Origin: Chthoniobacterales bacterium
GTDB lineage: Bacteria; Verrucomicrobiota; Verrucomicrobiia; Chthoniobacterales; UBA10450
Direction: 5' to 3'
NCBI GenBank assembly: GCA_038253875.1
Contig: JBBSGS010000001.1
Location: forward strand, 1 to 40,129
DNA length: 40,129 bases
The notes under the pieces were generated by a model that had not been told where the DNA came from, did no database searches, and saw nothing but the letters and a program-made list of their open reading frames with translations. Each line of letters begins with the position of its first letter. Position 1 is the first letter of the stretch. The position numbers were made by a program, and so were the translations under genes. Positions 1,948-40,129 of this stretch are shown one piece after another.

Positions 1948-3027
1948 CTAGGGCGCTTTTGTCGAGGCGGTTTTCTGCAGCAGCTCTTCCAATTGATCCT
2001 TCCAGAGCGCCGCGACCGTGTGGCTGCCGTGACCGCGCGTTTTGTCGCTCAAGGGAAGCACGATCGCGCGGCCGTTAGGCACGCGCTTGATCTCGCGCTC
2101 GAGGATGCCGAGTTCCGGCGGATTGATCAGGTCATCGGCGGAATTGATCGCGAGGAGCGGCGCGCGAATCTTCTCCAAGTCCCGGCCGGGATCGTAATCG
2201 CGCGACGCTTCCACGGCATAGAGGACGTCATTCGCGTCGCCAGTCTTGACGTAATCGTCGACAAATTTGTCCAGCACCGCGTCGGTCCTGGCGAGCGTTT
2301 CCGCCTCTTTCTGACGCAACACGGGATTGCTGCTCATGAACCAGAGCATCTCCGCGGCGGTGCGCAGACTCGGCGGCTGGGTTTTGTAATCGCCGCCATT
2401 CCACGCCGGATCGTTGCGGACCGCGTCGATCAAGAGGCGGCGCCAGGCACGGTTGCGGCCGGAAATCTGCGTTGGCAAACTCGCCAGCGGGAGGAGCGCG
2501 TCCATGAACTCCGGATGCAGTTCACCCCAGAGCCAGGTGTGCATGCCGCCCATCGAGGTGCCCATGACGAGGCGCGCGTGATTGACGCCGAGGCCTTCCG
2601 TTAACAACAGGTACTGCGCCGCGACCATGTCGCGGTAGCCATAGCGCGGGAATTTGGCGTGCAACCCGTCGCTCGGTTTGCTCGATTGGCCGTGGCCGAT
2701 CCCATCCGGCAGGACGATGAAAAACGTCGTCGCGTCGAGCGGCTGGCCTGGTCCGAAAAGTTCGCCGGCGAACTCCGGCCGAATAAACTGCGCGCCGCTC
2801 CCGGTCGTTCCGTGAGTGATGAGGACGGCGTTCTGGGTCACGCCTTTCACGTCCTTGACCGGCTTGCCTAACGAGCGGTAATGCAGGCGCAGCTCGGGAA
2901 GGGTTTCGCCGGAGGTGAATTTGAAATCGCGCGCGATGAAATCGCCCTCGTTAGGCGCGGGGTATTCCGCTGCCGCAAGCGAGCCGGAGAACGCGAGGAA
3001 AAGAAGGAGCGGCCAGATTCGGTTCAT
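1948..3027 (-). CDS. secreted alpha/beta-fold hydrolase (homoserine O-acetyltransferase/MetX-like fold)
   Basis: 359-aa ORF with an N-terminal signal peptide (MNRIWPLLLFLAFSGSLAAA). It has a nucleophile-elbow-like GTSMGG motif and alpha/beta hydrolase-like spacing. Confidence 0.7.
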   Translation of the reverse strand: MNRIWPLLLFLAFSGSLAAAEYPAPNEGDFIARDFKFTSGETLPELRLHYRSLGKPVKDVKGVTQNAVLITHGTTGSGAQFIRPEFAGELFGPGQPLDATTFFIVLPDGIGHGQSSKPSDGLHAKFPRYGYRDMVAAQYLLLTEGLGVNHARLVMGTSMGGMHTWLWGELHPEFMDALLPLASLPTQISGRNRAWRRLLIDAVRNDPAWNGGDYKTQPPSLRTAAEMLWFMSSNPVLRQKEAETLARTDAVLDKFVDDYVKTGDANDVLYAVEASRDYDPGRDLEKIRAPLLAINSADDLINPPELGILEREIKRVPNGRAIVLPLSDKTRGHGSHTVAALWKDQLEELLQKTASTKAP

Positions 3028-3098
3028 CGCGCAACTTCGGACGAGCGCGCTATTTCGCCATAGTTCTCGTAAGAGTGAGCGCTGTCTCCGAGTCTGGG

Positions 3099-3249
3099 GA
3101 GCACGGGCTGGCAGCCCGTTGTTCGGCGCAGGTTGCGCCGAACATCCCCCAGCGTCCTGCTCCGCGCATCGTTCCCCTCCCCGGTTGCGCTACGCGCAAA
3201 ATGCATGGGGCGAGACTCGCCCCCTGCGACGGGCTTGCAGCCCGTGCTC
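3099..3249. repeat. about 150-bp multi-hairpin element in a divergent promoter region
   Basis: The outer arms are GAGCACGGGCTG (3099-3110) and CAGCCCGTGCTC (3238-3249). The inner hairpins are ACGGGCTGGCAGCCCGT, GTTCGGCGCA-ggt-TGCGCCGAAC (3121-3143, perfect 10 bp), TTGCGC-tac-GCGCAA, GGGGCGA-gac-TCGCCCC and ACGGGCTTGCAGCCCGT. Confidence 0.65.
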
Positions 3250-3323
3250 CTCGGAAAAATCGCAACCCCAGTTGCCGCGCGAAATTTGAATCCAAAACCG
3301 ACGCGTCCCGCATCCCACCCTCG

Positions 3324-5864
3324 ATGTTACAGGATTTTCGTTTCGCTCTCCGCCAGCTCGCGAAGTCGCCGGGCTTTACTACCATCGCCATCCTCACTCT
3401 CGCGATCGCGATCGGGGTGAACTCCGCTATTTTTGCGCTCGTCAACAGCGTCATCCTCAAGCCGGTCGTGCCTTTGCGCCCGGCTGAGGTGGTCAATGTT
3501 TTCACCGCCCGGCAAAACGCCTCGCACGATTATCGGCAATTTGCCTACAACGAATTCAGCACCCTGCGCGAGAACACCGAGGTCTTTGCGGAGGTCGCGG
3601 CGATGCAGTTCGCGCTCGCTGGGATCGGGCGCGACGAGAGCATGCGCCGGAGCTTCGTCTTTCTGAGTTCGGAAAATTTCTTCTCGCTCATGGGAGTGAA
3701 ACCGGCGCTCGGCCGTTTTTATGGCGCCGCCGAATGCCAGCCAAACGCCAACATCCCCGTGGTCGTGGCGAGTTACGCGTTCTGGAAACGCCTCGGCGGG
3801 CGGGCCGAACTTATCGGCAAACCACTGACCGTAAACGGCCAGGCCTTCACATTGATCGGGGTGACGCCGGAAGGTTTCTCCGGGGTGAGCGCGTTGCTTG
3901 CGCCGGATCTTTGGCTGCCGCTCGGCGTCTATTCGCAGCTCAGCTCGGCCTTCAGCGATTCGACTCTGATGGACCTGAACGCGCCGAAAAATTACACCCT
4001 CAACTTGGTCGCGCGACTGCATTCCGGCCTAACGATTGAAGCTGCAAAATCGCGGCTGCCCGCGCTCGCGCAACGGCTGACGGCCATCCAACCGTCGGAT
4101 TCCGGCGGCAGCCGCGAGCTGCAAATTCAGAAGCCGGCACGCTTCAGCATTAGCACGTCGCCGGAAGATGATGGTCCGCTCGGCCTCGTCGGCACCTTGC
4201 TCATGGCGATGGCCGCGGCGGTGCTCTTCATCGCCTGCCTCAATCTCGCCAACATGCTGCTGGCGCGGGGAGCCAATCGCGCCAGGGAAATCGCGCTCCG
4301 CCTCGCCTTGGGCGCGAGCCGCTGGCGGATCGTTAGGCAACTGCTCTGCGAAGGTCTGCTCCTCGCGCTCGCCGGCGGTGTGCTCGGGTTGGTCATCAGC
4401 TATTGGAGCAACGACCTCCTCCTGGGATCGTTAGGCGGGCTTTTCAGCTCGATGAATTTTTCCCTCGTCGTCCATCTGCGCCCGGACCTGACCATCCTCG
4501 CGGTAACCTTCGCCGCATGTCTGCTGGCGACCCTTCTCTTCAGCCTCGGGCCGGCGCTGAAGGCGTCGCGGGCCGACCTGGTGAATGACTTGAAACAGCA
4601 GGTCGGCGAGCCGGCGCACGTCGGACGGCTCAATCGCTTCTTCGCCCCGCGTCATTTGCTCGTGATGGCGCAGATCGCACTCTCGCTCATGCTCCTCTTC
4701 AGCGCGGGCTTGTTCCTCCGGGGTGCGATGAAGGCGGGCGGTTTAAATCCGGGATTCGATCGGCGCGGCGGCATCTCGACGGAGATGGACTTCACCTTGG
4801 GCCGGCAGAACGACGCGGCGGCGCAGCGGACCATGTTTGCCGCGCTCCATCGGGTGCGAGAGCTGCCCGGCGTGCGGGCCGCCGCGCTCACGACGATGCT
4901 GCCATACGGCAACATCACGAACTCACGCCGCCTCATGCGCCTGGACGAGGCGGCGGTAGCGAAGACGGATCCGAAGGCGGCGGAGGCGGGCGCCGGTGGA
5001 TTGTTCACCGCGATCACCCCGGGGTGGTTCGATGCAATCGGCGTGCGCATCCTGCGCGGGCGGGATTTCAGCGAGAACGAAGCGGAACACAAGGAGACGC
5101 CCCGGGTCATGATCATCGACGAGTTGATGGCGAAAAAGCTCTTCCCGAAAAGCGACGCGCTCGGGCAGCACGTGCGCTACAGCCAGGCCCCGAGCGACGG
5201 TTCGCCTAACGACTTCCTGATCGTGGGGATCGTGAGCCAACATCGGCACGAGGTCATCGGCGACGAGCGCAGCCGGATTTTTGTGCCGCTCGCGCAATCC
5301 TACAGCGGCGGCGTGACCCTGGAAGCGCGCCTGACGCGGGACGATCGGGCCGCGGTCGCAGCCATGATTCCGACTGTGCGGCAGACCTTGCGCAACATCG
5401 ACGCGACCATGCCGATTCTGCAGATCCAACCTTTCGAAAACCTCGTGGACAAAAACGTCGGCCTTTGGGCGGTTCGCTTCGGCGCGGTCCTCTTCGGAAT
5501 TTTCGGCGTGATCGCGCTCTTGCTCGCGGCGGTCGGCGTCTACGGAGTGAAAGCCTACGCGGTCGCGCGCCGGACGCGGGAGATTGGCATTCGCATGGCG
5601 CTTGGGGCGGATCGCCGCGACGTCTTCGCGCTCATCATGAAACAAGGCGCGCTGCAAACCGCCTTCGCGCTCGGTCTCGGGTTATTGCTCGCGCTCGGAC
5701 TCGGGCGGGTGCTCGCGCAGATGCTCTATCAAGTGAGCCCGACGGATCCGTTGGTCCTCATCCTCTCGAGCGTGATGCTCGGGGGCGCCGCCCTGCTCGC
5801 GTGTTTCCTCCCGGCGCGCCGCGCAATGCGGGTGAGCCCGATGACGGCGCTGCGCGCGGAATAA
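3324..5864 (+). CDS. ADOP-family / MacB-like ABC transporter permease (duplicated FtsX-type permease with periplasmic core domains)
   Basis: The canonical family N-terminus MLQDFRFALRQLAKSPGFTTIAILTLAIAIGVNSAIF starts at ATG 3324. There are two FtsX-like C-terminal modules (REIALRLALGASRWRIVRQLL... and REIGIRMALGADRRDVFALIM...). The 83 codons the ORF track adds upstream (3075-3323) cover hairpin repeats and are not credited. Confidence 0.85.
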   Translation: MLQDFRFALRQLAKSPGFTTIAILTLAIAIGVNSAIFALVNSVILKPVVPLRPAEVVNVFTARQNASHDYRQFAYNEFSTLRENTEVFAEVAAMQFALAGIGRDESMRRSFVFLSSENFFSLMGVKPALGRFYGAAECQPNANIPVVVASYAFWKRLGGRAELIGKPLTVNGQAFTLIGVTPEGFSGVSALLAPDLWLPLGVYSQLSSAFSDSTLMDLNAPKNYTLNLVARLHSGLTIEAAKSRLPALAQRLTAIQPSDSGGSRELQIQKPARFSISTSPEDDGPLGLVGTLLMAMAAAVLFIACLNLANMLLARGANRAREIALRLALGASRWRIVRQLLCEGLLLALAGGVLGLVISYWSNDLLLGSLGGLFSSMNFSLVVHLRPDLTILAVTFAACLLATLLFSLGPALKASRADLVNDLKQQVGEPAHVGRLNRFFAPRHLLVMAQIALSLMLLFSAGLFLRGAMKAGGLNPGFDRRGGISTEMDFTLGRQNDAAAQRTMFAALHRVRELPGVRAAALTTMLPYGNITNSRRLMRLDEAAVAKTDPKAAEAGAGGLFTAITPGWFDAIGVRILRGRDFSENEAEHKETPRVMIIDELMAKKLFPKSDALGQHVRYSQAPSDGSPNDFLIVGIVSQHRHEVIGDERSRIFVPLAQSYSGGVTLEARLTRDDRAAVAAMIPTVRQTLRNIDATMPILQIQPFENLVDKNVGLWAVRFGAVLFGIFGVIALLLAAVGVYGVKAYAVARRTREIGIRMALGADRRDVFALIMKQGALQTAFALGLGLLLALGLGRVLAQMLYQVSPTDPLVLILSSVMLGGAALLACFLPARRAMRVSPMTALRAE

Positions 5865-5915
5865 ACGCGCGCGGTGATTCCTGGAGACGCCCGCGAGAAG
5901 AGGTTGTCAGAGCGG

Positions 5916-5940
5916 ACATGCCGCTCCTATGGAGCTTGGG
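5916..5940 (+). repeat. dispersed copy of the 25-nt unit ACATGCCGCTCCTNTGGAGCTTGGG
   Basis: It matches 11778-11802 at 24 of 25 positions. A third copy lies inverted at 11741-11763. Confidence 0.7.
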
Positions 5941-6057
5941 ACATTTACCATGGCCAGACTTAGACATTTCGCGCCTACGGCGCTGTTAGCCGCGTCCTTC
6001 GTCGCGCTGAACGGCGGCTGCGCACAGCCACGCGCTTGCACGTTTCGATTCCAAGAT

Positions 6058-6885
6058 ATGGAACGACCGCGCGAACGCAGCGTCCCTGGCTGGCTGGGGG
6101 CACTCCTGACCCTGGGCACTTTCGCCGCTCTCGTCTGGCTGGAAAACCGCCGCCCGTTACGCGGGGCGGTGGAATCCAAATTTCGTCGCAACGTGCGCAA
6201 CCTCGCGGTGGCGACACTCGGGGCGCTGAGCGTGCAGCTTGCGGAACAACCCGTCGTGAGGCCGTTGACCCGTCTGGTCGAGCGCCGCCAGCTCGGTCTG
6301 CTCAAACTCGTTAGGCTGCCGGCTTGGCTGGAAATCCCGCTCGCACTCGCGCTCCTCGATTACACGCTTTATCTCTGGCACGTCCTCACTCATCAGGTGC
6401 CGTTTCTCTGGCGTTTTCATCAGGTCCATCACGCCGATCTCGACATGGATGCCTCGACCGCGTTGCGTTTTCATTTCGGCGAACTGATCCTCTCGGTTCC
6501 GTGGCGCGCGGCGCAGATTCTCGGGATCGGAGTGTGCCCGTCTGCGCTTTCGCTCTGGCAAACCGCGCTTCTGCTCGAAATCATGTTTCACCATTCCAAC
6601 GTCGAGCTCTCGCCCGCCTTCGAAGCGCGCCTCGCCAAAGTGATCGTGACCCCGCGTCTCCATGGGATTCATCACTCGATCGTCGAGGATGAGGTGAACT
6701 CGAATTGGTCGAGTGGCCTGACGATTTGGGATTGGCTGCACCGGACCCTGCGGCTCGACGTGCCGCAGAGCGCGATCACCCTCGGGGTGCCGGCCTTTCT
6801 CGATCCGGCGGAAGTGGAGTTGGGCGAAGTGCTGGAGATGCCGTTCGTTAGGCAGCGCGACCCGCAGTTTCTCCCGCCGCGGTAA
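6058..6885 (+). CDS. fatty acid hydroxylase / sterol desaturase family membrane protein
   Basis: His-box motifs are present: HVLTHQ, HQVHHAD and HGIHHS. I prefer the start at ATG 6058 because the ORF-track ATG at 5929 lies inside a dispersed repeat copy (5916-5940). The start remains uncertain (5929, 5950 or 6058). Confidence 0.7.
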   Translation: MERPRERSVPGWLGALLTLGTFAALVWLENRRPLRGAVESKFRRNVRNLAVATLGALSVQLAEQPVVRPLTRLVERRQLGLLKLVRLPAWLEIPLALALLDYTLYLWHVLTHQVPFLWRFHQVHHADLDMDASTALRFHFGELILSVPWRAAQILGIGVCPSALSLWQTALLLEIMFHHSNVELSPAFEARLAKVIVTPRLHGIHHSIVEDEVNSNWSSGLTIWDWLHRTLRLDVPQSAITLGVPAFLDPAEVELGEVLEMPFVRQRDPQFLPPR

Positions 6886-6959
6886 CTCAGGATTCCAGCC
6901 TGGCGCAGCAACCGCCATGCTGGAAGCATGCGGGACCTGTCAGGCTGGAAGCCTGAGTT
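6884..6959. terminator. long hairpin between convergent genes (possible bidirectional terminator), engulfing both stop codons
   Basis: 19-bp arms AACTCAGGATTCCAGCCTG (6884-6902) and CAGGCTGGAAGCCTGAGTT (6941-6959) pair with 1 mismatch. An inner hairpin CATGCT-gga-AGCATG is present. Confidence 0.45.
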
Positions 6960-8226
6960 ACCGCACCGGACCGGTCCCGCGAATGAGGTATTTGTAGGTC
7001 GTCAGCTCTTCCAATCCCATCGGACCGCGGGCGTGCAACTTCTCGGTACTGATCCCAATCTCCGCGCCAAAACCAAATTCGGCGCCATCCGTAAAACGAG
7101 TGGAGGCGTTCCAATAAACCGTCGCGGAATCGATCTCGCGGAGGAAGCGTTCCGCCAGTTCCGGATCGCGGGTGACAATGCAATCGCTATGGTGCGAACC
7201 GCAGCGCTCGATGTGCTCGATGGCCTCGTTAGGCGAATCGACCACTTTCACGGCGAGAATGAAATCGAGATATTCCGTCGACCAATCCGCCTCGCTCGCG
7301 GCGACGAGCAGCCGGTACTCGAGCGACACCAACTGCGAGAAAGACTCTGCGTCCGCGCGCAGTTCGACCTTCTTTTCCTCCAGACGCGGCGCGAGTTTTG
7401 CGAAGAGCGCCGGCGCGATCGCGCGATGCACGAGCACGGCTTCGGCTGCGTTGCAGACGCCGGGCCGCTGGGTTTTTGCGTTCACGATGATCTCGACTGC
7501 CATCTCCAGATCAGCCGCTTGATCGACGTAAATGATGCAAACGCCATCGGCATGTTTGATCACCGGCATGCGCGCGTGGCTGACGACGGCTTCGATGAGC
7601 GCGTGCCCGCCCCGCGGAATGATCAGGTCGATATAACGATCCATCTCCGCCATGTGCCGGACCGCTTCGCGGTCGGTCTGCGGAATGAGCAGGATGCTGT
7701 CGGGCGGCAACCCGGCTTTGGCGCCGCCCCGTTGCAACGCTTCGGCAATGGCGACGTTCGAACGAATCGATTCCGAGCCGCCGCGCAAAATCACCGCGTT
7801 GCCCGTTTTCGTGGAGAGGACGGCGGCGTCGCTGGTAACGTTAGGCCGCGATTCGTAAATGATCCCGATGACGCCGATCGGAACGCGCATTTTGGAAATT
7901 TCGATTCCGTTAGGCTGGGTCCAGGCCCGGAGAACTTCGCCGACAGGATCGGGTAGCGTCGCCACCTGGCGGATGCCCTCGGCCATCTTCGCGAGCCGCT
8001 CTTCGTCCAACGTCAGGCGATCGATCATCGCGCCGGGCAGGGCGTTTGTCTGAGCGTGGGCCAGGTCTTTTTCGTTGGCCGCGAGAATGGCCGCAGCTGA
8101 GGCCACGACCTCATCGGCCATCGCTCGCAAGGCCGCGTTTTTCTGCTCACTTTCGAGTTTCGCCAGAGCGCGGGCGGCCTGGCGGGCGCGCTTGCCGAAG
8201 TCGAGAATTTGCTCGCGCAGATCCAT
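6958..8226 (-). CDS. proA: gamma-glutamyl phosphate reductase
   Basis: 422-aa product from MDLREQILDFGKRARQAARAL... It has ProA-typical blocks (VIGIIYESRPNVT, AVILRGG, NAKTQRPGVCNA, GSHHSD, ASTRFTDG). The ORF-track N-terminal extension to 8583 overlaps proB and is rejected. Confidence 0.9.
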   Translation of the reverse strand: MDLREQILDFGKRARQAARALAKLESEQKNAALRAMADEVVASAAAILAANEKDLAHAQTNALPGAMIDRLTLDEERLAKMAEGIRQVATLPDPVGEVLRAWTQPNGIEISKMRVPIGVIGIIYESRPNVTSDAAVLSTKTGNAVILRGGSESIRSNVAIAEALQRGGAKAGLPPDSILLIPQTDREAVRHMAEMDRYIDLIIPRGGHALIEAVVSHARMPVIKHADGVCIIYVDQAADLEMAVEIIVNAKTQRPGVCNAAEAVLVHRAIAPALFAKLAPRLEEKKVELRADAESFSQLVSLEYRLLVAASEADWSTEYLDFILAVKVVDSPNEAIEHIERCGSHHSDCIVTRDPELAERFLREIDSATVYWNASTRFTDGAEFGFGAEIGISTEKLHARGPMGLEELTTYKYLIRGTGPVR

Positions 8227-8236
8227 GGTCAAGTGC

Positions 8237-9038
8237 CTAACGAGCTTGCGATGCGCGGGAACGTTTCTTCGTGACGAAATGCGTCCCCGCCGCTTCTCCC
8301 GCGACAACCGTGGCGATTCGTCCCGGCTGCCGGCCGTTGATGATCGCCGTGGTAATGCCGGCATCGATCGCCCTCTGCACGGCGTCGAGTTGGAAATCAT
8401 TCCGCCAACCGAGAATCGCCCTTTCTCGGCGTTGACCAGGCCTTTCACCCGCGCGATATCGCGCACCCCGCCTAACGATCTTACCCTGGCCGTCGAGAAG
8501 TCCATCGACCTGGGTGAGAAGGATGAGGAGATCCGCGCCGGCCAGCACCGCGACATCGACGGAAAGGAGATCGTTATCGCCAAACTTCAATTCCACCGCT
8601 ACGGAGTCGTTCTCATTGATGATGGGCACGACGTTGCCGACGGCGAGGAGGCGTTCGAGGGTGCTTTTGGCGTTGGTCCGCCGCATCTGGCTGTCGAGAT
8701 CGCCGTGGGTAAGGAGGAGCTGGGCGACGTTCAATCGGTAGCGCGCAAAAGCGGTTTCGTAGGCGCGCATCAGTTTGGATTGACCGATGGCTGCGCTCGC
8801 CTGGGCGGTTGCGAGGTCGGTCGGGCGTTCCGTCAGGGAGAGCGCCTTCATCCCGGCGGCGACGGCGCCACTGCTCACGGCGACGCATTGATGGCCCGCG
8901 CGCACGAGGGCGGCGACTTCCGCGGCGAGGCGCGCGAATTGTTTCGGATCAAGCCCGGGCGAATTCGTCCGGGTCAAAATGCCGGGAACCAAATTTGAGG
9001 ACGATGCGCTTTTTCTTTCCCACGGTTTTTTTGAGCAC
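8237..9038 (-). pseudogene. proB: glutamate 5-kinase (short form, no PUA domain) whose frame is broken by three single-base homopolymer indels (true pseudogene or assembly errors)
   Basis: The conserved N-terminus KKRIVLKFGS is in one frame. GILTRTNSPGLDPKQF...VAVSSGAVAAGM...VVPIINENDSVA follows in another, after an extra C in the ggttCCCggc run (plus-strand 8984-8986). The conserved VRDIARVKGLVNAEKGRFSVGGMIS block is out of frame between 8466-8469 (extra G/C) and 8390-8391 (missing A/T). The frame then returns for LDAVQRAIDAGITTAIINGRQPG. Confidence 0.7.
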
Positions 9039-9111
9039 GATGAAAATGGCGCGCGGTCGTTAGGCACGATCACTGCCCGACGCGAAAAGCCCGCGGGACC
9101 AAGGGCGGCGG

Positions 9112-9387: not shown

Positions 9388-9529
9388 ATGTTAGGTTCGG
9401 CGAGCGCGGCGCGATGCGAGCTCGCTCGATCGAATTGCTGGCGCTTGAAAGCAGAGCAGGCCGCACGGCCTCGGCGCTCGCGTTCGACAGCCGGGCCGCA
9501 CGGTTGCATCATGCACCTGAGTTTACGCT

Positions 9530-10643: not shown

Positions 10644-10690
10644 CGCGGGTGCAACTTTGAAGTGCTCTCTGGCGTTGCGGAAATCACCGG

Positions 10691-10780: not shown

Positions 10781-10811
10781 CGCCGCTCGATCGGTTCCTC
10801 CTCGCCGACAG

Positions 10812-11675: not shown

Positions 11676-11693
11676 CGCGGGTCGAGTCTCCGA

Positions 11694-33636: not shown

Positions 33637-35649
33637 CTAGGCCATCACTTCCAGGAGGGCCTGCTCCAATTGCGCGAAATCCACCGGCTTGATTAGATGG
33701 GCTGCGAAGCCCGCTTCCTGCGAGTGGCGGATATCCTCATCCATCCCATAACCGCTCAGAGCGATGGCCGGTATCGGGCGGGTGGCCCGCAGTCTTTTCA
33801 CCAAATCGAAACCGGTCCCATCGGGCAACCCGAGATCGCTGATCACAACGTCGAACGTTTTCTCCTTCGCAGCCTCGAATGCATTGGCCACGCTCGCCGC
33901 GGTCGTCACTTCGTGGCCCGCGCGCTGGAGCAGTCTGGCCAATACCTCTACGGTGGCGTGATGATCTTCCACCAGGAGGACGCGCAGCGAAGCGACCTGC
34001 GCCGGCGTCGTGCCTGTCTCCACGCGCGCGGGCGCGGCCTCGGCTGCGCCTAACGAGTGCTCTGTTGTCGGCAATTCTACCGTGAGGGTGGCGCCTCGCC
34101 CCGGGCCCCCGCTCTCAGCCCGGATGATGCCGCCATGCAATTCCGTAATGGTTTTTGCGATCGCAAGCCCCAGCCCAAGGCCGCCGAAGCGATGCTCGGC
34201 GAAGGGTCTGGCCTGCTCGAAGGGCAGAAAAATCCGCTCTAGCGCCTCGGCGGCGAGGCCGACGCCCGTGTCACTAATTTGGAAAACGATTCGCTCGCCG
34301 AGATTGAACGAGCGCACCGTCAGATGCCCGCCGGTCGGGGTGAACTTGACTGCGTTCTTGAGCAAATTCCAGAGGACCTGCTCGATCCGCGCGGGATCAC
34401 CGGAGAGCTGGGAGCGCTCGGCCGCGAGATCCACTTCCAGGGTTAATTGTTGGTTCGCGACATCGTCTTGAACGATTTCGAGCGCGGACTGCAGCAGCGA
34501 ATGTCCGTCGCAGTTCTGGACCTGGAGACGCAACTTGCCATGCGTAATCCGGGTGATATCGAGCAGGTCGTCGATCAATCGAGCCTCCAGTTCGACGTTG
34601 CGCTGGATCATGGCGAACTGGGCGCGGACGTCCGCGGCAAACCGCTCCTCGTCGCGCCCCGCGGCGGCGATCATGAGCACGGGGGTAAGCGGCGTGCGCA
34701 GCTCGTGGGAAAGGGCGGCGAGAAATTTGTCCTTCGCCCTGGAGGCGCGCTCCGCTTCCTCTTTGGCCTGGCGCAGTTCTTCGATGTCGGTGTTTGAGCC
34801 GATCCACATCGCCACCCGATCCTCCGCGTCGCGCATCGCCCGGGCACGGCTGAGGTGCCAGCGATACTCGCCATCATGGCGGCGGACACGATGCTCGAAC
34901 TCGAATGGCTCGCCCGTTTGAAGGGATTGGCGCCATTGCTCGAGATTGTCTGCGAGATCGTCGGGATGAATGAACTGCTGCCAGCCCCAATCCTTCATCT
35001 GCTCAAAACTCATCCCGGTAAATTCCATCCATTGCCGGTTGAAGTAATCGATGTCGCCATTCGCTTGCGCGGTGAAGATTTTTTGCGGCATCGATTCGGC
35101 GAGGAAACGAAAGCGTTCCGCGCTCGCGCGCAATTCGTTCTCCACCTCTCGGCGCTCGGCGATCTCTTGCTGCAGGCGCGCATTCAGTTTCTCCCCCACC
35201 TCGGCGAGTTCGTGCTGGTGCAAGCCAGCGATGAGCAGGGCTTCGTTGATGGCGGTAGCGTTGAGGCTAAAGCTGGGTGCCTTGGTCAACTGGATGATTG
35301 CTCCCACCGGAGATTGATTCGCGTCCAGCGCGGGCCAGATCGCGTACAACCAGTGCGCGGGCTCGGAGTCGTGCTCATGCGCGTGGGTTGCGGCTTCTCC
35401 AGTCTCGTAAACCTGATCCAGAATCGCCGCGCACTCGCCGCCTCCCGGCACGATTTCGGCAAAGGGATTGCCAATCAAATCCGTTTTGCTCCTCCCGAGC
35501 AATCTGCAGAAGGCGGCGTTGACGTAGAAGACACGGTGCTCGCTTCCCCGCACCTCAACAATTGGCAAAGGCGCACGCTCGATAATCGGCGCTACCTCGC
35601 TCCGCGCCTCGGGGATCGGGTCCACTCTTCCAGGTCTACCCGTCCTCAT
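33637..35649 (-). CDS. hybrid sensor histidine kinase (2x PAS - HisKA - HATPase_c - REC)
   Basis: The H-box is LSHELRTPLTP. N/G boxes are present (LLKNAVKFTP, DTGVGL, GGLGLGLAI). The C-terminal receiver is LRVLLVEDHH...VISDLGLPDGTG...KP. Confidence 0.9.
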   Translation of the reverse strand: MRTGRPGRVDPIPEARSEVAPIIERAPLPIVEVRGSEHRVFYVNAAFCRLLGRSKTDLIGNPFAEIVPGGGECAAILDQVYETGEAATHAHEHDSEPAHWLYAIWPALDANQSPVGAIIQLTKAPSFSLNATAINEALLIAGLHQHELAEVGEKLNARLQQEIAERREVENELRASAERFRFLAESMPQKIFTAQANGDIDYFNRQWMEFTGMSFEQMKDWGWQQFIHPDDLADNLEQWRQSLQTGEPFEFEHRVRRHDGEYRWHLSRARAMRDAEDRVAMWIGSNTDIEELRQAKEEAERASRAKDKFLAALSHELRTPLTPVLMIAAAGRDEERFAADVRAQFAMIQRNVELEARLIDDLLDITRITHGKLRLQVQNCDGHSLLQSALEIVQDDVANQQLTLEVDLAAERSQLSGDPARIEQVLWNLLKNAVKFTPTGGHLTVRSFNLGERIVFQISDTGVGLAAEALERIFLPFEQARPFAEHRFGGLGLGLAIAKTITELHGGIIRAESGGPGRGATLTVELPTTEHSLGAAEAAPARVETGTTPAQVASLRVLLVEDHHATVEVLARLLQRAGHEVTTAASVANAFEAAKEKTFDVVISDLGLPDGTGFDLVKRLRATRPIPAIALSGYGMDEDIRHSQEAGFAAHLIKPVDFAQLEQALLEVMA

Positions 35650-35663
35650 GAAATTTTATCCAC

Positions 35664-37217
35664 CTACGCTTTCGCCTTCGGTTCGGGCGCTATATCCTGC
35701 AGCTGGCCGATTCGTTCCGGCAGCCCGGTAGTCAAACGCACGTAATCCGTCTGGCGCGGCCCGATCACGACCACGCCTTCGTTGGTGATGACATATTCGC
35801 GGATGTCTTTGCTGTGATTGCCGCCACGCATTTTGATAACGACGAGAACTTTGCGCAGTTGACCATCGATCTCCACGTAGCGCAGCCGGATAATGTCATC
35901 AGTCAGAAACGAAATGGCGTAACGACTGAACTCCATCGCCGTAAATGAATCCTCAACCTCGACGGTGGTGAAGATCGTCACGCCGGCTCCGGTCAACGCC
36001 GCAATCATGCGATAGAGCGATTCACGAAAGTCTTCCCGAAAACCAGGAGCGAGCGCCATCTCAAAGCCCACCAGAGAGTCGATCACCAGCCGTTTGGCAT
36101 CCACCCTTTTCACCGCATCGAGAATCTCCTGCATCGTTTCGTCGACGGAGAGGTCCAATGGACGGAGGTAGAGCAGCTCGAGCTTCCCTTTTTTTAGCGG
36201 CCCCTCCAGATCCAGACCAAAACCCTTGGCTCGCGCCGCGTAGCCTAGGGGACGTTCCTCGAAGATCGCCGCAATGCCGGGTTCCCCGTTACGCAGGCCT
36301 TCGGCGAGAAATTGGGTCGCGAGGGCCGATTTGCCCGTTCCAGATGGGCCGGACACGAGCACGCTGTCGCCTTCTCGGATGCCACCGCCCATCATCTTGT
36401 CCAGCTCGGGAATGCCGATGGAAAGACGCCGCGGCCGGGCCGGTCTCTCCTTTTTTTTCCCGGCCAGGCCCAAGGTGCGTGAGAATGCTTGCAGCCCGTC
36501 GCCGCTGATGCGGATGGTGTGCAGGCCCGGGACCGATTCCTGCCCACGCAGTTTCATGATCTGGAGCTTCCGCACCACGGAATTGCGTTCCACATTTTGC
36601 GTGAGCCAGAAGAGGCCATCGGCCACCGTGAACACGGGATTGTCGCGCATCTCGGATTCCATATATTCTCCGATCAAAAATGTGGTGGCCTGCCAGGCGG
36701 TTAATTGCAGGGCGAGGCGCTGAATGAAGCCTTGCAGTTCCAGTTCCGTGGTATTGCCCATCGCTTTACGCACCACGGTGCGAAAAGAGTCCACCACCAC
36801 CATGCTGGGATTGGATGCCTGCACTTCCCGGTCGATTTCATCCAGCACCCCGCCCAGATCTTTCTCCATGACCACGTGGCTCAGGTTGACGAAGCGGATG
36901 GATTTCCCCAACTTCGCCGGATCGAAGAAGGAATATTGCTGCTGGTAACGCAGCATTTTCAGGGCGGGTTCGCCGAGCACGGTGAAATAGAGCGCGGGCT
37001 TCTGCGGGGTCGCATTGGCAAAGAGGATCTGATGTGCCAGCGTCGTTTTCCCGCAACCCGGCGCGCCCGCGATGATGTTGAAGGAGAATTCCGGCAGCCC
37101 ACCACCCATGATCTCATCGAGGCCGCGAACGCCGGTCGGCAGTTGGCGGATTTTCACTTTCTCCAGCGGAGTTGCTTTTGGGGAGGGCTCGCGTGACACG
37201 ATTTTTTTTCTCTTCAT
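35664..37217 (-). CDS. KaiC-like double RecA-superfamily ATPase (orphan; no KaiA/KaiB nearby)
   Basis: There are two domains with Walker A motifs GAPGCGKT and GPSGTGKS. KaiC-like GLDEIMGGGLP and ELDKMMGGGI openers are present, and IMKLRG / VIKMRG motifs. I prefer the start at ATG 37217, which overlaps the stop of the upstream ORF as ATGA. Confidence 0.85.
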   Translation of the reverse strand: MKRKKIVSREPSPKATPLEKVKIRQLPTGVRGLDEIMGGGLPEFSFNIIAGAPGCGKTTLAHQILFANATPQKPALYFTVLGEPALKMLRYQQQYSFFDPAKLGKSIRFVNLSHVVMEKDLGGVLDEIDREVQASNPSMVVVDSFRTVVRKAMGNTTELELQGFIQRLALQLTAWQATTFLIGEYMESEMRDNPVFTVADGLFWLTQNVERNSVVRKLQIMKLRGQESVPGLHTIRISGDGLQAFSRTLGLAGKKKERPARPRRLSIGIPELDKMMGGGIREGDSVLVSGPSGTGKSALATQFLAEGLRNGEPGIAAIFEERPLGYAARAKGFGLDLEGPLKKGKLELLYLRPLDLSVDETMQEILDAVKRVDAKRLVIDSLVGFEMALAPGFREDFRESLYRMIAALTGAGVTIFTTVEVEDSFTAMEFSRYAISFLTDDIIRLRYVEIDGQLRKVLVVIKMRGGNHSKDIREYVITNEGVVVIGPRQTDYVRLTTGLPERIGQLQDIAPEPKAKA

Positions 37218-37705
37218 ACCTTTTCCTCTGTCAAACTTGATATCTCCCATTTCGGCCAAATCTCGTAGACCAACTGCATCGTTAAAGCCGGGCCAATGAA
37301 AATCACGAGCAAGCCGAGCAATTGCCCCACGAGGAAGACTTCGCCCTCAGCGATAGCGTCCGCGCCGAGCGCCGCCTCCAGCCCGTCCAGATCCCAACAG
37401 CCGCCCGCCTTGATCTTGAGTGTCAGGAGCCAGGGAAGCTCCGCGCCGGCGAGCGACTGGGCGCGCGAGAGAAGCGAGCGAAAGCCGTCGACGCCCAGTA
37501 ATTTGCCGAGCGGCTCGCGCAACTTCTCACAGACACGAAAGGCCCCAGAATCCTCATCTACGGAGGGGTTGTCCGCTGTCACCTCGAAAGCCAGCAAGCG
37601 TCGCGCGAATCCCGTCGGCATTGCTGGGGTGGTGTCGAGCATGGGTTGCAAAATAAATGTCGCCGTCTGTTGCACCGTGAGCGGGAGAGGCATTATCCCC
37701 ATCAC
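37214..37705 (-). CDS. hypothetical 163-aa protein translationally coupled to the KaiC-like gene
   Basis: Codon usage is coding-like. Its stop overlaps the KaiC-like ATG (plus-strand tcat at 37214-37217). I recognise no family, and it is not KaiB-like (no thioredoxin-like pattern). Confidence 0.5.
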   Translation of the reverse strand: MMGIMPLPLTVQQTATFILQPMLDTTPAMPTGFARRLLAFEVTADNPSVDEDSGAFRVCEKLREPLGKLLGVDGFRSLLSRAQSLAGAELPWLLTLKIKAGGCWDLDGLEAALGADAIAEGEVFLVGQLLGLLVIFIGPALTMQLVYEIWPKWEISSLTEEKV

Positions 37706-37824
37706 CGACTCCGATTCAACCGGAAACGCAACCCTCCCGGCGGTGAAGGCCTATCTCGGCCAGTCGCCGCCTGAACTGCTGGCCAGCCACACTCATCGTG
37801 GTTCTGGGACCCGCTCAGCCCGCG

Positions 37825-38826
37825 CTAAGACGACAGCTTCCTCCGCAAAGAATGATACTTGGTACGGAGGCGGTGCCGAAAATGGAATGGCCGCAGATAC
37901 TGCAGATAGGGCGGCAGGTGCGCCCATTTTTCCGGGAGCCGGCGCAGGGTTTTGATTTCGAGACACCACTCGACTACGCGGTGGAAGCAGGCCCGCTCTG
38001 CAAACCAGTCGTCCCAAGCCGCACGCGCCCGCCGGCCCATCGCGACCGCTTCGCCTTCCCGTTCATCAAGAATTGGGAGAATGCGCTCAAGCTCGCTCTC
38101 CCCGATGCGGATGCTGAATTGATCCCAGGCCGGTCCACTCGGCTCCACCCATTGATCGGAAAGAATCACCGGCACCCGGCCCATTCGCATGACGTCGAAA
38201 AGACGCACGCTCGAGGGCGAAAGACCTCGCGGGCAAAGGACGAACTTGCTCGCCCCTATACTCTCGGCGTAGCGCTGCCAGTAGGCGCGCATCTCCGTCG
38301 CTCCCCATTCTCCCCCCAGAACGCGAGTCTGATCGCTCGCGGTGTCCCGGAAAAACCCGCGCGGGTGCTCCAGCCCGCGCAAGCGCCGCCGCACCGGCGC
38401 AGTCGCGATCGAGCCCAAAAAACTGTAGAGCCAGGGCAAGTCGTCGGCTGGCTCCGAGAAAGCGACAAACTCATTCTCCGAGACGCCAAGATAGGAGCCG
38501 GCGCGCGTGCGATCTGTCGCCCAGCGGCGCTCGATCGAAGTGTACACTCCGGGCAAAAACGGAATCGCGTAGGGCGTGGAGGAAAAAAGAAAGCACTTTT
38601 CCCGATAGTGCCTAACGAGTGGATGCTTTCTCACTTTCTCAAAATAGGGACCGGCGCCGTGCAGCTCGGCGAAGAGAATGATCTCAGCTGCCGCCGGGTC
38701 GTTAGTCAGTGAATGAATTTGAAACGCGTCGGCCTGCGCGCTTCGCTTTAATCCGCGGTAAGCGCCGCCGTTGAAGTCACTGTCGCCATCGCCGCTGGCG
38801 ACAGAGAGGAGGAACACTTTAGCCAT
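37825..38826 (-). CDS. exostosin-family (GT47-like) glycosyltransferase
   Basis: The C-terminal block SKFVLCPRGLSPSSVRLFDVMRMGRVPVILSDQWVEP is characteristic of exostosin-type GTs. Confidence 0.75.
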   Translation of the reverse strand: MAKVFLLSVASGDGDSDFNGGAYRGLKRSAQADAFQIHSLTNDPAAAEIILFAELHGAGPYFEKVRKHPLVRHYREKCFLFSSTPYAIPFLPGVYTSIERRWATDRTRAGSYLGVSENEFVAFSEPADDLPWLYSFLGSIATAPVRRRLRGLEHPRGFFRDTASDQTRVLGGEWGATEMRAYWQRYAESIGASKFVLCPRGLSPSSVRLFDVMRMGRVPVILSDQWVEPSGPAWDQFSIRIGESELERILPILDEREGEAVAMGRRARAAWDDWFAERACFHRVVEWCLEIKTLRRLPEKWAHLPPYLQYLRPFHFRHRLRTKYHSLRRKLSS

Positions 38827-38847
38827 TGGATACCGCGGGGCGCCCTT

Positions 38848-38937
38848 TGTAGACGTTTCGCTCTGCGAAACGCGAGGGAATAGATTGCTCGATTATTGCA
38901 CCGTTGTTCCCACGCATCGCGGAGCGAAGCGTCTACA
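38848..38937. repeat. two inverted copies of the same hairpin-repeat family flanking about 50 bp
   Basis: 38848-38872 is the reverse complement of CGTTTCGCAGAGCGAAACGTCTACA. 38922-38937 (GAGCGAAGCGTCTACA) is identical to 17025-17040. Confidence 0.7.
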
Positions 38938-40129
38938 ATAAGAGCAGCGACGGATTTTCGAGCAGATGCCGGAGCGCCTTGAGATAATGGGCCCCGATCG
39001 CGCCATCGACGACCCGATGGTCGCAGCTCATCCCGATCTTCATCTGGTAACCGGGGACAATCCCGCCGCGGTCGTCCACGACTGCTTGCCTAACGATCGC
39101 GCCGATCGAGAGAATGATCGCCTGCGGCGGGTTGATGACCGCGGAGAAATAATCGATGCCGTAGCTGCCGAGGTTCGAAACGGTGAGGGTGCCGCCCTGG
39201 AATTCCTCCGGTTTCATCCGCTTGTTGCGCGCGCGATGGGCGAGATCTTTGACCGCCGCGCTGATCTCGCGGAGGGACTTATTTTGCGCGCCGCGAATCA
39301 CCGGCGTGACGAGACCTTCCTCCATCGCCACGGCGACAGCGAGGTTGATGTCGCCGTAGTGGATGATGGCGTCGCCGTCGAAAGCGGCGTTCACTTTCGG
39401 CTCGCGCAAGGCCGCGACGACCGCGCCTTTGAGGATGAAGTCGTTGACCGTGATCCTGGTCGCATCCTCCTCTTCACCGCCGGATTTCAATTCGGCGCGA
39501 ACGCGCATGAGGGCGTCGGCGTTGATCTCGATGTTGAGGTAAAAATGCGGGACCGGACCGAGACTGGAGACGAGGCGTTCGGCAATGATTTTGCGCATGC
39601 CAGTGAGGCTGATGCGAGCGGTCTCGCCGGCGCTGATTTCTGGAACTGCAGCAACGGTTTTTTTCGCGGGCGCGGCTTTGGCTTCGGCGGGCGACGCCGC
39701 GGTTCCTGCGGCCGACACGGCTGCCTCTACATCTTTCTCGACGATTCTTGAGCCGGGGCCGGTGCCTTTGACGTTCGTTAGGTCGACGCCTTTTTCCGCC
39801 GCGATTTTGCGCGCGAGCGGCGAGGCTTTCACACGTTGCGTCTCGCCGTCATTCACGATCTCTTCCGTGGCACCTTTTTCCTTTGCGGGCGCCACGCCCG
39901 CCTCTACAGGCTCCGCCTTCTTTGGCTCCTCGGTTTTTGCGGGAGCAGTCTCTTCGCCTTTCGATTCCTCTTCCGCCTCTTTCTGTGATTCGGCCGGCGC
40001 TTCTTCGCCTTCGCCGGCGATGAAGGCGATCCGGTCGCCCACATTTACCTTGCAGCCTTCCTCGACGAAAATTTCCTTGAGCACGCCGTCGTCGGTCGCT
40101 TCCCACTCCATCGTTGCCTTGTCGGTCTC
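38933..40129 (-). CDS. dihydrolipoamide acyltransferase (E2 of a 2-oxoacid/pyruvate dehydrogenase complex); N-terminus runs off the window
   Basis: The lipoyl-lysine motif ETDKATMEWEA sits at the window edge. An Ala/Pro/Glu-rich linker follows, then the E3-binding segment SPLARKIAAEKGVDL. The catalytic domain ends in the ...DHRVVDGA motif. Confidence 0.9.
   Translation of the reverse strand, partial: ETDKATMEWEATDDGVLKEIFVEEGCKVNVGDRIAFIAGEGEEAPAESQKEAEEESKGEETAPAKTEEPKKAEPVEAGVAPAKEKGATEEIVNDGETQRVKASPLARKIAAEKGVDLTNVKGTGPGSRIVEKDVEAAVSAAGTAASPAEAKAAPAKKTVAAVPEISAGETARISLTGMRKIIAERLVSSLGPVPHFYLNIEINADALMRVRAELKSGGEEEDATRITVNDFILKGAVVAALREPKVNAAFDGDAIIHYGDINLAVAVAMEEGLVTPVIRGAQNKSLREISAAVKDLAHRARNKRMKPEEFQGGTLTVSNLGSYGIDYFSAVINPPQAIILSIGAIVRQAVVDDRGGIVPGYQMKIGMSCDHRVVDGAIGAHYLKALRHLLENPSLLLL

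Follow-up and report, generated by a model that had tools for sequence, protein, structure and literature searches.

The genome of an uncultured soil Chthoniobacterales bacterium (Verrucomicrobiota) carries the short asymmetric word TCGTTAGGC approximately once per kb, far more often than expected by chance, on both strands and in a form that related genomes conserve. The word could plausibly serve as a genome-wide, DNA-level "self" tag of the kind represented by the DUS of Neisseriaceae and the USS of Pasteurellaceae, and this analogy is the best lead available to a putative function. To our knowledge, uptake sequences, by which certain bacteria recognise DNA as their own, have been described in two proteobacterial families only. 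We found no earlier description of this word in the literature.

Abundance and placement of the word in the window

The window, that is, the whole stretch of 40,129 nt analysed here, contains 43 exact copies of the 7-mer CGTTAGG/CCTAACG (23 as CGTTAGG and 20 as CCTAACG on the + strand), 30 of which match the extended 9-mer. Every coordinate and strand given in a preliminary description of this DNA proved exact on recount, as did its number of 9-mers. Dinucleotide-preserving shuffles of the window yielded a mean of 2.2 7-mers (maximum 7) and 0.23 9-mers, and Markov models of order 1-4 with the word masked predicted 0.9-2.3 7-mers; overall, chance would place ~1-4 7-mers and ~0.2-0.4 9-mers in the window. 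Based on the shuffle and Markov expectations, enrichment is ~19-48-fold for the 7-mer and ~70-130-fold for the 9-mer, such that the claimed excess holds against a higher-order Markov null and the hyper-abundance of T-CGTTAGG-C is confirmed. Enrichment is also specific to the exact word, as the only strong outliers in an unbiased k-mer screen of the window were this word and its sub-words. Across the whole window the 7-mer occurs once per 0.93 kb, rather than once per ~0.65 kb as first estimated, a density that is approached (~1 per 0.69 kb) only when an empty 8.2-kb stretch is left out. Six one-mismatch sites previously listed as decayed copies are real, but the window holds 44 such sites, about the chance number, and they are hence not evidence of decay.

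The copies and the empty stretch are listed below (7-mer coordinates; +, CGTTAGG on the + strand; frames are given by the residues read).

2073-2079, +, CCGTTAGGC; abhydrolase gene, antisense, P-N
2867-2873, -, TCGTTAGGC; abhydrolase gene, sense, S-L-G
2949-2955, +, TCGTTAGGC; abhydrolase gene, antisense, P-N
4028-4034, -, TCGTTAGGC; MacB-like permease, antisense, L-T; kept in L003, L005
4331-4337, +, TCGTTAGGC; MacB-like permease, sense, V-R; point variants in relatives (TCGTCAGGC etc.)
4429-4435, +, TCGTTAGGC; MacB-like permease, sense, S-L-G
5205-5211, -, TCGTTAGGC; MacB-like permease, antisense, P-N; kept in L003, L005, L006
6309-6315, +, TCGTTAGGC; fatty-acid hydroxylase, sense, V-R
6846-6852, +, TCGTTAGGC; fatty-acid hydroxylase, sense, V-R
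7227-7233, +, TCGTTAGGC; proA, antisense, P-N
7839-7845, +, ACGTTAGGC; proA, antisense, P-N; identical in L005
7908-7914, +, CCGTTAGGC; proA, antisense, P-N; identical in L005
8236-8242, -, TCGTTAGGC; TAA within is the proB stop codon
8471-8477, -, TCGTTAGGC; proB, sense, V-R
9058-9064, +, TCGTTAGGC; intergenic, divergent spacer proB / asparaginase-like
11394-11400, -, TCGTTAGGC; UbiA prenyltransferase, antisense, P-N
11886-11892, -, TCGTTAGGC; intergenic, convergent spacer UbiA / aromatic amino acid hydroxylase
12616-12622, +, TCGTTAGGC; aromatic amino acid hydroxylase, antisense, P-N; kept in L003, L005, L006
12849-12855, -, TCGTTAGGC; aromatic amino acid hydroxylase, sense, S-L-G; kept in L003, L005, L006
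13706-13712, -, TCGTTAGGC; intergenic, divergent spacer aromatic amino acid hydroxylase / hflK
14838-14844, -, TCGTTAGGG; TAA within is the hflK stop codon
15297-15303, +, TCGTTAGGG; hflC, sense, V-R
16990-16996, +, TCGTTAGGC; intergenic, convergent spacer desaturase / iPGM
17324-17330, -, TCGTTAGGC; iPGM, sense, S-L-G; kept in L003, L005, L006
17883-17889, +, TCGTTAGGC; iPGM, antisense, P-N; kept in L003, L005, L006
18737-18743, -, CCGTTAGGC; alkaline phosphatase, antisense, L-T
19100-19106, -, TCGTTAGGC; alkaline phosphatase, antisense, L-T
20060-20066, +, TCGTTAGGG; overlaps stop codon of a 494-aa ORF (20062-21546, -)
20067-28241, no strand, word-free stretch of 8.2 kb; two unknown ORFs, TPR protein, TonB-dependent receptor
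28242-28248, -, ACGTTAGGC; intergenic, divergent spacer TonB receptor / CitMHS
28253-28259, -, GCGTTAGGC; also in this spacer; left arm of an inverted pair with 28271, the only close one
28271-28277, +, TCGTTAGGC; also in this spacer; right arm of the pair with 28253, loop of 11 nt
28389-28395, +, TCGTTAGGG; same spacer
29568-29574, +, TCGTTAGGC; CitMHS transporter, sense, S-L-G
29922-29928, -, CCGTTAGGC; riboflavin synthase, antisense, L-T
30213-30219, -, TCGTTAGGC; riboflavin synthase, antisense, L-T
31295-31301, +, TCGTTAGGC; LON N-domain protein, sense, V-R
32437-32443, +, TCGTTAGGC; HD phosphohydrolase, antisense, P-N
33517-33523, +, TCGTTAGGC; in or adjoining an ORF of doubtful status (116 aa); direct pair with 33535
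33535-33541, +, TCGTTAGGG; direct pair with 33517
34049-34055, -, TCGTTAGGC; PAS histidine kinase, sense, S-L-G
38611-38617, -, TCGTTAGGC; GT47 glycosyltransferase, sense, V-R
39089-39095, -, TCGTTAGGC; E2 acyltransferase, sense, V-R
39776-39782, +, TCGTTAGGT; E2 acyltransferase, antisense, L-T

Thirty-two of the 43 copies lie wholly within genes (14 sense, 18 antisense) and eight are intergenic, in agreement with the described occurrence in spacers and in every stop-free frame (V-R 8, S-L-G 6, P-N 12, L-T 6). A further claim, that the embedded triplet is at times a real stop codon, was borne out for all three copies concerned (proB, 8237-8239; hflK, 14840-14842; and the ORF ending at 20062). 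The word thus occurs in either orientation and in each of the four stop-free frames, as a DNA-level signal would. An ORF at 6928-7956 (+) was rejected as a gene, being a shadow of proA on the opposite strand.

As first described, the word shows no strand or gene-orientation bias: the pooled strand count was 74:72, no locus was skewed, a Chi-like skew of 75% was rejected (p = 0.002), and no orientation pattern was detected. A logo of 121 independent sites ends at T-CGTTAGG-C, with uninformative flanks beyond; the word is hence not a mobile element, and no dispersed repeat family accounts for the excess. The inverted pairs reported as occasional come down to a single close pair in the window (28253/28271), located in a divergent promoter spacer, and no terminator-like hairpins built from the word were found.

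A gap as long as the word-free block has a probability of P = 0.0023. GC3 is 0.61-0.65 in this block versus 0.70-0.81 in the rest of the window, and word density increases with both GC and GC3. The orthologous block in the relatives L003 and L005 likewise contains zero copies, which means that the empty block did not arrive recently in this genome only.

Conservation among Chthoniobacterales relatives

In each Chthoniobacterales relative sampled (protein identity 76-87%), the word ranked first among the outliers, with densities of 0.3-1.3 copies per kb; it was absent from unrelated controls. Orthologous copies were kept in 13/22, 15/22 and 10/16 cases, versus background rates of 0.34, 0.19 and 0.20. 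Identity between species at third-codon (silent) positions was 0.83-0.89 within the word versus 0.55-0.69 outside it, showing conservation beyond that of the surrounding codons, a check that the preliminary description had proposed. Relatives without a given copy carried point-substituted versions at that site, with zero indels, and copies thus originate by point substitution in situ.

Such an origin is also what a repair or mutational bias would produce, whereby very-short-patch-type mismatch repair or context-dependent mutation turns near-matches into a functionless word; a mutational force could also override codon bias and leave the word in phage DNA (both described below). Nonetheless, we consider this highly improbable. 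Known very-short-patch repair corrects a single position of its site and gives less than ~2-fold enrichment, whereas all 8-9 positions are fixed here, and under a proper null the number of one-mismatch variants deviates in neither direction. The 8.2-kb block was already present before the species diverged and has zero copies. Moreover, copies persist at orthologous sites instead of being formed over and over at new ones, an observation likewise used to argue against biased repair for HIP1 (PMC5861425).

Hyper-abundance together with above-background conservation is the exact pattern of HIP1, the function of which is still open (PMC5861425). By analogy, T-CGTTAGG-C might be recognised by an orphan DNA methyltransferase or an abundant DNA-binding protein that acts across the whole genome, for example in organising the nucleoid, in bookkeeping for replication or repair, or in recognising own DNA by its methylation; the sites would be kept by per-site selection and the gene would have moved between phyla. 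In keeping with this, two methylases have been linked with HIP1, and a 2024 preprint connects it with a transformation efficiency that depends on methylation. We regard a HIP1-like role as unlikely, as the word is non-palindromic, unlike HIP1, and no regular spacing of copies was seen at this scale. Restriction-linked methylase sites are also normally avoided rather than enriched, and for selection to maintain thousands of individual sites, each would need to bring a plausible benefit.

Occurrence in Gemmatimonadaceae and phage contigs

The core CGTTAGGC is as abundant in a clade of Gemmatimonadaceae, members of another, unrelated soil phylum. Locus L353 contains 20 copies versus 0.42 expected and L350 contains 16 versus 1.1 expected, whereas L354, a syntenic sister of L353 with equal GC, contains none. 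We know of no precedent among uptake sequences for one core common to two phyla. The flanks differ as dialects, with T at position -1 in 103/121 Verrucomicrobiota sites versus 10/45 in Gemmatimonadaceae. The word also overrides codon bias, forcing the otherwise unused Leu codon TTA in L353: this codon is absent from the 587 Leu codons of L354, while 14 of the 26 TTA codons in L353 fall within the word, where L354 has CTC or CTG.

As 14 of the 19 coding copies in L353 share a single frame (x-Leu-Gly), an ordinary cause might be suspected: the excess could stem from the usage of certain codon pairs or peptides, from one dispersed repeat family or from faulty assembly. These causes were refuted by frame, flank and assembly tests. 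Copies in the window occupy four frames and both orientations, with 11 outside genes or at gene edges, and the L353 frame requires a codon that its sister never uses, such that codon or peptide usage does not account for the excess; flanks are unconserved and a repeat family is absent; and identical sites recur in independent ENA, JGI and NCBI assemblies.

Host-like word density and the matching dialect were seen in three phage contigs, all chosen for holding one close pair of the word: L134 (head module), L035 (terminase and DNA polymerase A) and L204. Both dialects are represented among them. Uptake sequences are generally said to be scarce in mobile DNA. For a HIP1-like site, phage carriage would fit a benefit to any replicon in the cell, and the patchy spread across phyla would fit a mobile specificity gene; methyltransferase genes often move between phyla.

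The phage contigs, in their presumed hosts' dialect, are also consistent with a self marker resembling the Chi sites of RecBCD/AddAB but independent of orientation, where word-less DNA would be degraded or restricted and word-bearing DNA spared or recombined, so that the chromosome and the phages surviving in these hosts would both accumulate the word. Chi sites are likewise asymmetric and 8-9 bases long; depletion in the compositionally atypical block and the lineage specificity, with the word clearly present in one genome and missing from its sister, would also fit. However, such a marker appears quite unlikely, given that Chi and KOPS are strand-skewed, unlike this strand-balanced word, and that known Chi words are sparser and only few-fold enriched, versus 20-100-fold at 1 per kb here.

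A putative role in DNA uptake

Under the uptake reading, a DNA-import component (e.g., a minor type IV pilin or periplasmic DNA receptor) would prefer double-stranded DNA with the exact word, and word-bearing fragments from relatives would be imported and recombined more often. Copy-creating point mutations would then spread and copy-destroying ones would be replaced, with molecular drive, possibly aided by selection, as the driving force. Native DNA would saturate at ~1 copy per kb on both strands wherever coding constraints permit, and recently arrived DNA would stay word-poor. From the patterns observed we infer an uptake bias, a receptor, and recombination as the force that fixes copies. 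The core shared with Gemmatimonadaceae may reflect transfer of the recognition protein between co-resident soil lineages, or convergence on the word. If the reading is true, import or binding should favour CGTTAGGC over CGTCAGGC or scrambled DNA.

This reading had been put forward in the preliminary description, and the Markov, repeat, codon, skew and conservation tests all came out in its favour, whereas terminators, phage and the two phyla differ. The word resembles DUS and USS in its density (~1 per kb) and 9-mer core (10.1101/2025.10.24.684340). About half of DUS and USS lie within terminators, often as inverted pairs (10.1101/2025.10.24.684340); in contrast, this word is associated with neither, occurs in phage contigs at host-like density and has the same core in two phyla. 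No competence or pilus genes were found in ~0.3 Mb of word-rich DNA, a sample too small to mean much; ComEC homologs have been tabulated for abundant MAGs from soil, in both Verrucomicrobia and Gemmatimonadetes (PMC7305173).

Abundance and placement of the word in the window

An exact search of the window recovered 43 copies of CGTTAGG/CCTAACG, of which 23 run along the + strand and 20 along the - strand; this reproduces the number, positions and strand split reported in the preliminary description. Dinucleotide-preserving shuffles gave an expectation of 2.2 copies (maximum 7), and the extended 9-mer TCGTTAGGC, likewise found as often as reported, accounted for 30 of the 43 copies (0.23 expected by shuffling). 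Markov nulls of order 1-4, run with the word masked to keep it out of its own expectation, predicted 0.9-2.3 copies of the 7-mer, and hence the reported excess persists against higher-order expectation. When every 6- to 10-mer in the window was screened without bias, the word and its sub-words were the sole strong outliers. Aligned copies read T (36/43), CGTTAGG and C (37/43) with unconserved flanks, and 121 independent sites pooled from eight sequences yielded the same 9-mer, together with a slight deficit of T at positions two and three downstream. By direct reading, the 8-mer core CGTTAGGC differs from its own reverse complement and is thus not palindromic. Copy density (43 per 40 kb versus 1-4 expected in the window, and 0.3-1.3 per kb at loci of relatives) resembles that of the DUS and USS uptake sequences.

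The preliminary description had named a dispersed repeat family as a possible source of the excess. This was rejected, as the flanks carry no information, no Rfam family matched the window, and no repeat family accounting for the copies was found there. REP/BIME elements and MITEs are also scattered over genomes in many copies, but they are longer, structured, intergenic and inserted as blocks, whereas the word is mostly genic, has unconserved flanks and appears to arise by point substitution. A longer repeat that includes the word, GCTCAGCTCAAC-CGTTAGGC (or GCTGAAC...), was observed in two metagenome contigs (L297, 947-4498; L276, 12996-13912) and is a different, REP-like phenomenon.

Based on a gene table compiled from ORFs, codon-position GC and Pfam/NCBIfam matches, approximately 89% of the window is coding. 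One ORF (6928-7956, + strand, 342 aa) was discarded as a shadow of proA, the Aldedh match lying at 6958-8583 on the - strand. Thirty-two copies fall wholly within genes (14 sense, 18 antisense) and occupy all four stop-free frames, read as V-R (8), S-L-G (6), P-N (12) and L-T (6). Eight are intergenic, four of which share one divergent spacer (28006-28465). In three cases, the embedded stop triplet is the actual stop codon, as first noted by eye (proB, hflK and a 494-aa ORF). Frames appear to be limited by coding cost, with stop-containing frames avoided in the window and mostly x-Leu-Gly readings at the Gemmatimonadaceae locus L353. Occurrence in both orientations, in four frames, and in genes as well as spacers places the signal in DNA rather than in peptide or RNA, and explanations based on a peptide, codons or a repeat family were rejected.

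The reported lack of strand bias also holds across the loci sampled. Strand counts of 23/20, 14/15, 9/10, 7/10, 8/8 and 13/9 were pooled to 74:72, orientation runs were random, and within word-bearing stretches neither spacing nor orientation order could be told from random. A Chi-like strand skew of 75% was rejected (P = 0.002), and with it a polar word of the Chi/KOPS type. Chi (RecBCD/AddAB) and KOPS (FtsK), 5- to 8-mers read by a DNA-translocating machine, are similarly asymmetric, over-represented and lineage-specific, but they are replication-skewed, sparser and enriched only a few-fold, whereas the word is unskewed and 20- to 100-fold enriched.

Inverted pairs had been put forward as a trait shared with DUS and USS. 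One close inverted pair does exist in the window, within the divergent spacer, but it is the only one, and the habit of DUS and USS of lying frequently in transcription terminators, commonly as inverted pairs, was not found. Terminator-like hairpins are roughly as common in the window as in its shuffles, and the word does not form any of them. Other spacer repeats were observed as follows:

11693-11719 and 11824-11850: perfect 27-nt inverted repeat, enclosing the next
11734-11763 and 11778-11807: second inverted repeat
5916-5946: inner arm sequence, found again
17014-17040 and 38848-38874: 27-nt element CGCGCTTCGCAGAGCGAAGCGTCTACA, in inverted orientation, in two convergent spacers
10696-10783 and 6874-6969: further spacer hairpins

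The repeats at 11693-11850 and 5916-5946 look like a small spacer element of the REP/MITE kind, unrelated to the word. The CGCGCTTCGCAGAGCGAAGCGTCTACA elements and the spacer hairpins, rather than the word, may serve as terminators.

Conservation among Chthoniobacterales and the copy-free block

The closest named relatives of the aromatic amino acid hydroxylase encoded in the window are found in MAGs of Chthoniobacterales, an order of Verrucomicrobiota; an exact look-up of the hydroxylase itself gave no recorded contig. The orthologous locus was taken from relatives at 87, 84, 83, 79, 77 and 76% protein identity. CGTTAGG was enriched in every case, with 24 (L003), 29 (L005), 19 (L006), 17 (L007), 9 (L008) and 6 copies (L009) in approximately 21.7 kb each, versus 1-2.4 expected per locus, and the word was the top outlier in all relatives except the most distant one. 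A further locus (L004) was 100% identical to L003 and was counted as the same genome, and hence this pair carries no within-species information. As negative controls, two unrelated loci (Peptococcaceae and Lysobacterales) contained zero copies; both came from a contig scan with the proA shadow ORF, which is why only two unrelated loci were returned. The words TGTCATCCCG and GGGGTCCCTCGCC, unrelated to CGTTAGG, were over-represented in L009.

Many window copies occupy orthologous positions in L003, L005 and L006, and a relative without a given copy has at that site a sequence that differs by one to a few substitutions and not by indels. The whole 7-mer was kept in 13/22, 15/22 and 10/16 aligned cases, respectively, versus background 7-mer conservation of 0.34, 0.19 and 0.20 (P = 0.013, 6e-7 and 3e-4). 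Comparison with related genomes, which the preliminary description had proposed for separating the word from its surrounding codons, came out in favor of the word, as third codon positions were 83-89% identical inside it versus 55-69% elsewhere. Together, these results indicate that some force acts on the DNA word itself, in addition to protein constraint. Hyper-abundance thus coincides with conservation beyond that of control words, as for the cyanobacterial word HIP1.

Copies are not evenly distributed, and one long stretch of the window has none (P = 0.0023 for such a gap):

20067-28241: copy-free stretch
20062-28005, - strand: genes of the copy-free block, comprising two unknown ORFs, a TPR protein and a 1077-aa TonB-dependent receptor

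GC3 in these genes is 0.61-0.65, versus 0.70-0.81 elsewhere in the window. Copy density was correlated with GC (rho = 0.52, P = 9e-5; 2-kb bins from four genomes) and, taken gene by gene, with GC3 (rho = 0.54, P = 0.0025). The orthologous block is likewise empty in L003 and L005, which points to an old atypical block rather than a recent arrival in the window genome alone. Elsewhere, a KaiC-family ATPase adjoins a PAS histidine kinase with a receiver domain (33637-37259). This 3.6-kb pair contains one copy of the word, and 4.6 kb at 34056-38610 is empty.

Gemmatimonadaceae and phage contigs

Metagenome sequences were scanned for the 8-mer as an inverted pair. Most of the matches listed were chance pairs, and they also included higher-GC contigs in which CGTTAGGC is scattered and T is not preferred upstream. 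Three independent markers assign these contigs to Gemmatimonadaceae, phylum Gemmatimonadota: an HtpX-type peptidase (83% identity to a named MAG protein), AnmK (86% identity) and a TonB-dependent receptor (clustering at 90% identity with NCBI HZI43086.1). Loci were then fetched around markers; they are therefore free of the ascertainment of the pair scan, and they confirm the enrichment.

Table. CGTTAGG copies at Gemmatimonadaceae/Gemmatimonadales loci
Locus; description; copies; expected
L350; HtpX ortholog, 87% identity; 16 (8 +, 8 -); 1.1
L351; from GCA_036280115.1; 7 in 15 kb; ~0.7
L352; more distant HtpX ortholog; 2; -
L353; AnmK ortholog, GC 0.714; 22, of which 20 are CGTTAGGC; 0.42 (8-mer)
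L354; syntenic to L353, same family, GC 0.714, 69% marker identity; 0; -

The word is thus lineage-specific, with the sister loci L354 and L352 scored as lacking it. Across both phyla, word-rich records are ENA ERZ25039552 contig_29679 (1.45 Mb), ERZ25071726 ctg274314, ERZ25039538 contig_26142 and ERZ28493434 ctg4075242 and NCBI GCA_036280115.1, and GCA_036378095.1 and ERZ28493185 ctg4075593 are controls free of the word. It also has a flank dialect: the 5' T is present in 103/121 sites in Chthoniobacterales, where it is required, versus 10/45 in Gemmatimonadaceae, where it is not. Fourteen of the 19 coding copies in L353 read NCG-TTA-GGC, where L354 has CTC or CTG. TTA encodes none of the 587 leucines in L354 and is used 26 times in L353, 14 of them inside the word, so that the word is installed in the face of a strong codon bias. 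An earlier indication that one-mismatch variants are depleted in the window (44 versus ~76 by shuffles) was withdrawn: word-masked nulls of order 3-4 predict ~55, L005 shows no depletion, in L353 the 8-mer variants are in excess, and L354, the control that lacks the word, gives the same apparent depletion as the window. The enrichment itself is sharply specific to the exact core and is relaxed only at the two flank positions.

Other words were over-represented at these loci. CGTCAGGC, one base off the word, was the top outlier in L352 (1-21056; 12 copies versus 2.4, fivefold; Gemmatimonadales). It was not accepted as a one-base dialect, because 10 of the 12 copies share the strand on which most genes are found, and at no orthologous site is CGTCAGGC exchanged for the word; its excess may be a codon effect. 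Words unrelated to CGTTAGG were GGGAAGAGGGAAG in L350 and AGCTATCAGC (7 copies) in L351. A further metagenome contig, L273 (GC 0.615), has six copies in 3.7 kb with mixed flank usage, and may represent a third word-bearing lineage. One of its copies (1450-1460) abuts a candidate ATG of a glutamyl-tRNA synthetase gene (CCTAACG-ATG), which differs from the start on record in the protein collection.

Close-pair scans of viral (IMG/VR) and metagenome sequences returned mostly chance pairs and tandem arrays among the matches listed. Few of these matches were truly word-rich contigs, three of them from IMG/VR.

Table. Word-rich IMG/VR contigs (two copies per contig are forced by selection for one close pair)
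Contig; region; GC; genes; copies
L134 (IMGVR_UViG_3300036819_000104); 1-12120; 0.61; lambda-type terminase, portal, S49 protease, major capsid protein; 12 in 12.1 kb, nine as TCGTTAGGC
L035; 2483-10295; 0.66; terminase, family-A DNA polymerase, NT5C; 9, eight within 3 kb
L204/L030; L204 1571-8993; 0.71; full-length match to phage protein family phrog_13692 (L204); nine evenly spread CGTTAGGC

Each carries the word at approximately one copy per kb, and its flank dialect is that of the lineage presumed to be its host. A search with the L134 terminase for related sequences matched only L134 itself. As to scarcity in mobile or recently acquired DNA, the observations point both ways: the 8.2-kb low-GC3 block is empty and density follows GC3, yet L134, L035 and L204 carry the word.

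Comparison with known genomic words and possible function

In most traits that can be read from sequence, the word agrees with DUS of Neisseriaceae (core GCCGTCTGAA, ComP receptor) and USS of Pasteurellaceae (core AAGTGCGGT), although its own sequence is unrelated to either. As in DUS and USS, it is a non-palindromic word of 8-10 bases, present at roughly one copy per kb and equally on both strands, in spacers as well as within genes, where it takes the cheapest frames. It likewise appears to originate by point mutation, is common to related species with flank or base dialects, is scarce in compositionally atypical DNA, and is sharply specific to the exact word. The likeness to uptake sequences first proposed therefore stands for most sequence-level traits and fails for the terminator and inverted-pair trait. 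Further differences are that phage contigs carry the word, that one core occurs in two phyla, and that the hosts are uncultured soil Verrucomicrobiota and Gemmatimonadota rather than host-associated Proteobacteria. Moreover, uptake bias and a receptor are features of DUS and USS, whereas here the resemblance is read from DNA sequence.

HIP1 (GCGATCGC), a hyper-abundant 8-mer enriched 15- to 300-fold in cyanobacteria, offers a second comparison. It is also conserved between genomes, within and between genes, has variant words in some lineages, and is not explained by peptides, RNA or promoters. Unlike this asymmetric word, HIP1 is a palindrome with methylase sites and has been reported to be periodic at 10-90 kb. 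The word appears to belong among the known hyper-abundant, conserved genomic words, its cross-phylum core being unusual and its uptake role putative.

Among established processes, biased uptake with subsequent homologous recombination is the only one we know of that favors an intact word at thousands of sites irrespective of polarity. The explanation we tentatively favor, at somewhat less than even confidence, is a genome-wide self-DNA tag, in which the word would be kept by sequence-biased DNA uptake and then homologous recombination. Such molecular drive has been discussed as a model for USS and DUS (10.1101/2025.10.24.684340). A survey of a grassland soil lists ComEC homologs for every abundant population of Verrucomicrobia and Gemmatimonadetes, and also reports recombination in these populations (PMC7305173; these genomes differ from those analyzed here). 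An import channel is thus at least not foreign to either phylum. In the small word-rich sample screened here, signatures of pilin, PilT/PilB, DprA, ComEA, ComEC and ComF gave no match.

The lack of a terminator habit, carriage by phage contigs and a core in two phyla speak against carrying the DUS/USS model over unchanged, and strengthen three alternatives. The word could be a HIP1-like site for a protein or methylase. Alternatively, a nuclease or a recombination machine might read it as a marker of self DNA, irrespective of orientation. Biased repair is the least likely of the three.

If the word does act in uptake, it would give the first example of an uptake-signal-type sequence outside Proteobacteria, shared through the core CGTTAGGC by two lineages, of different phyla, that rank among the most abundant uncultured ones in soil; we consider this reading rather doubtful. 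Full-text literature searches (journal coverage incomplete) returned no prior description of the word or its complement, or of uptake sequences in Verrucomicrobia or Gemmatimonadota, and no report on uptake-sequence-like motifs in general that describes this word. On the uptake reading, the shared core would imply either transfer of a sequence-specific DNA receptor from one phylum to the other, or a common tag by which each preferentially imports the DNA of the other; gene exchange between phyla in soil would then have a built-in channel.

To our knowledge, sequence-specific DNA uptake is confined to two families of host-associated Proteobacteria. It is still debated whether uptake sequences result from selection for "safe sex" or are a product of molecular drive alone. 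Free-living, uncultured soil bacteria would offer an independent case and thereby a natural comparison against which to test both ideas; their word is different, lacks a terminator habit, and is present in one sister genome and absent from another. If the word is not an uptake signal, a force strong enough to introduce, thousands of times per genome, a codon that is otherwise unused would still call for an explanation. Given the contrast between L353 and L354 and the sharing by two phyla, the putative recognition protein should be findable by phylogenetic profiling. For these lineages, the word also provides a short tag that can help in binning and in recognizing foreign DNA, and it could inform DNA design when genetic tools are first developed for Chthoniobacterales and Gemmatimonadaceae.
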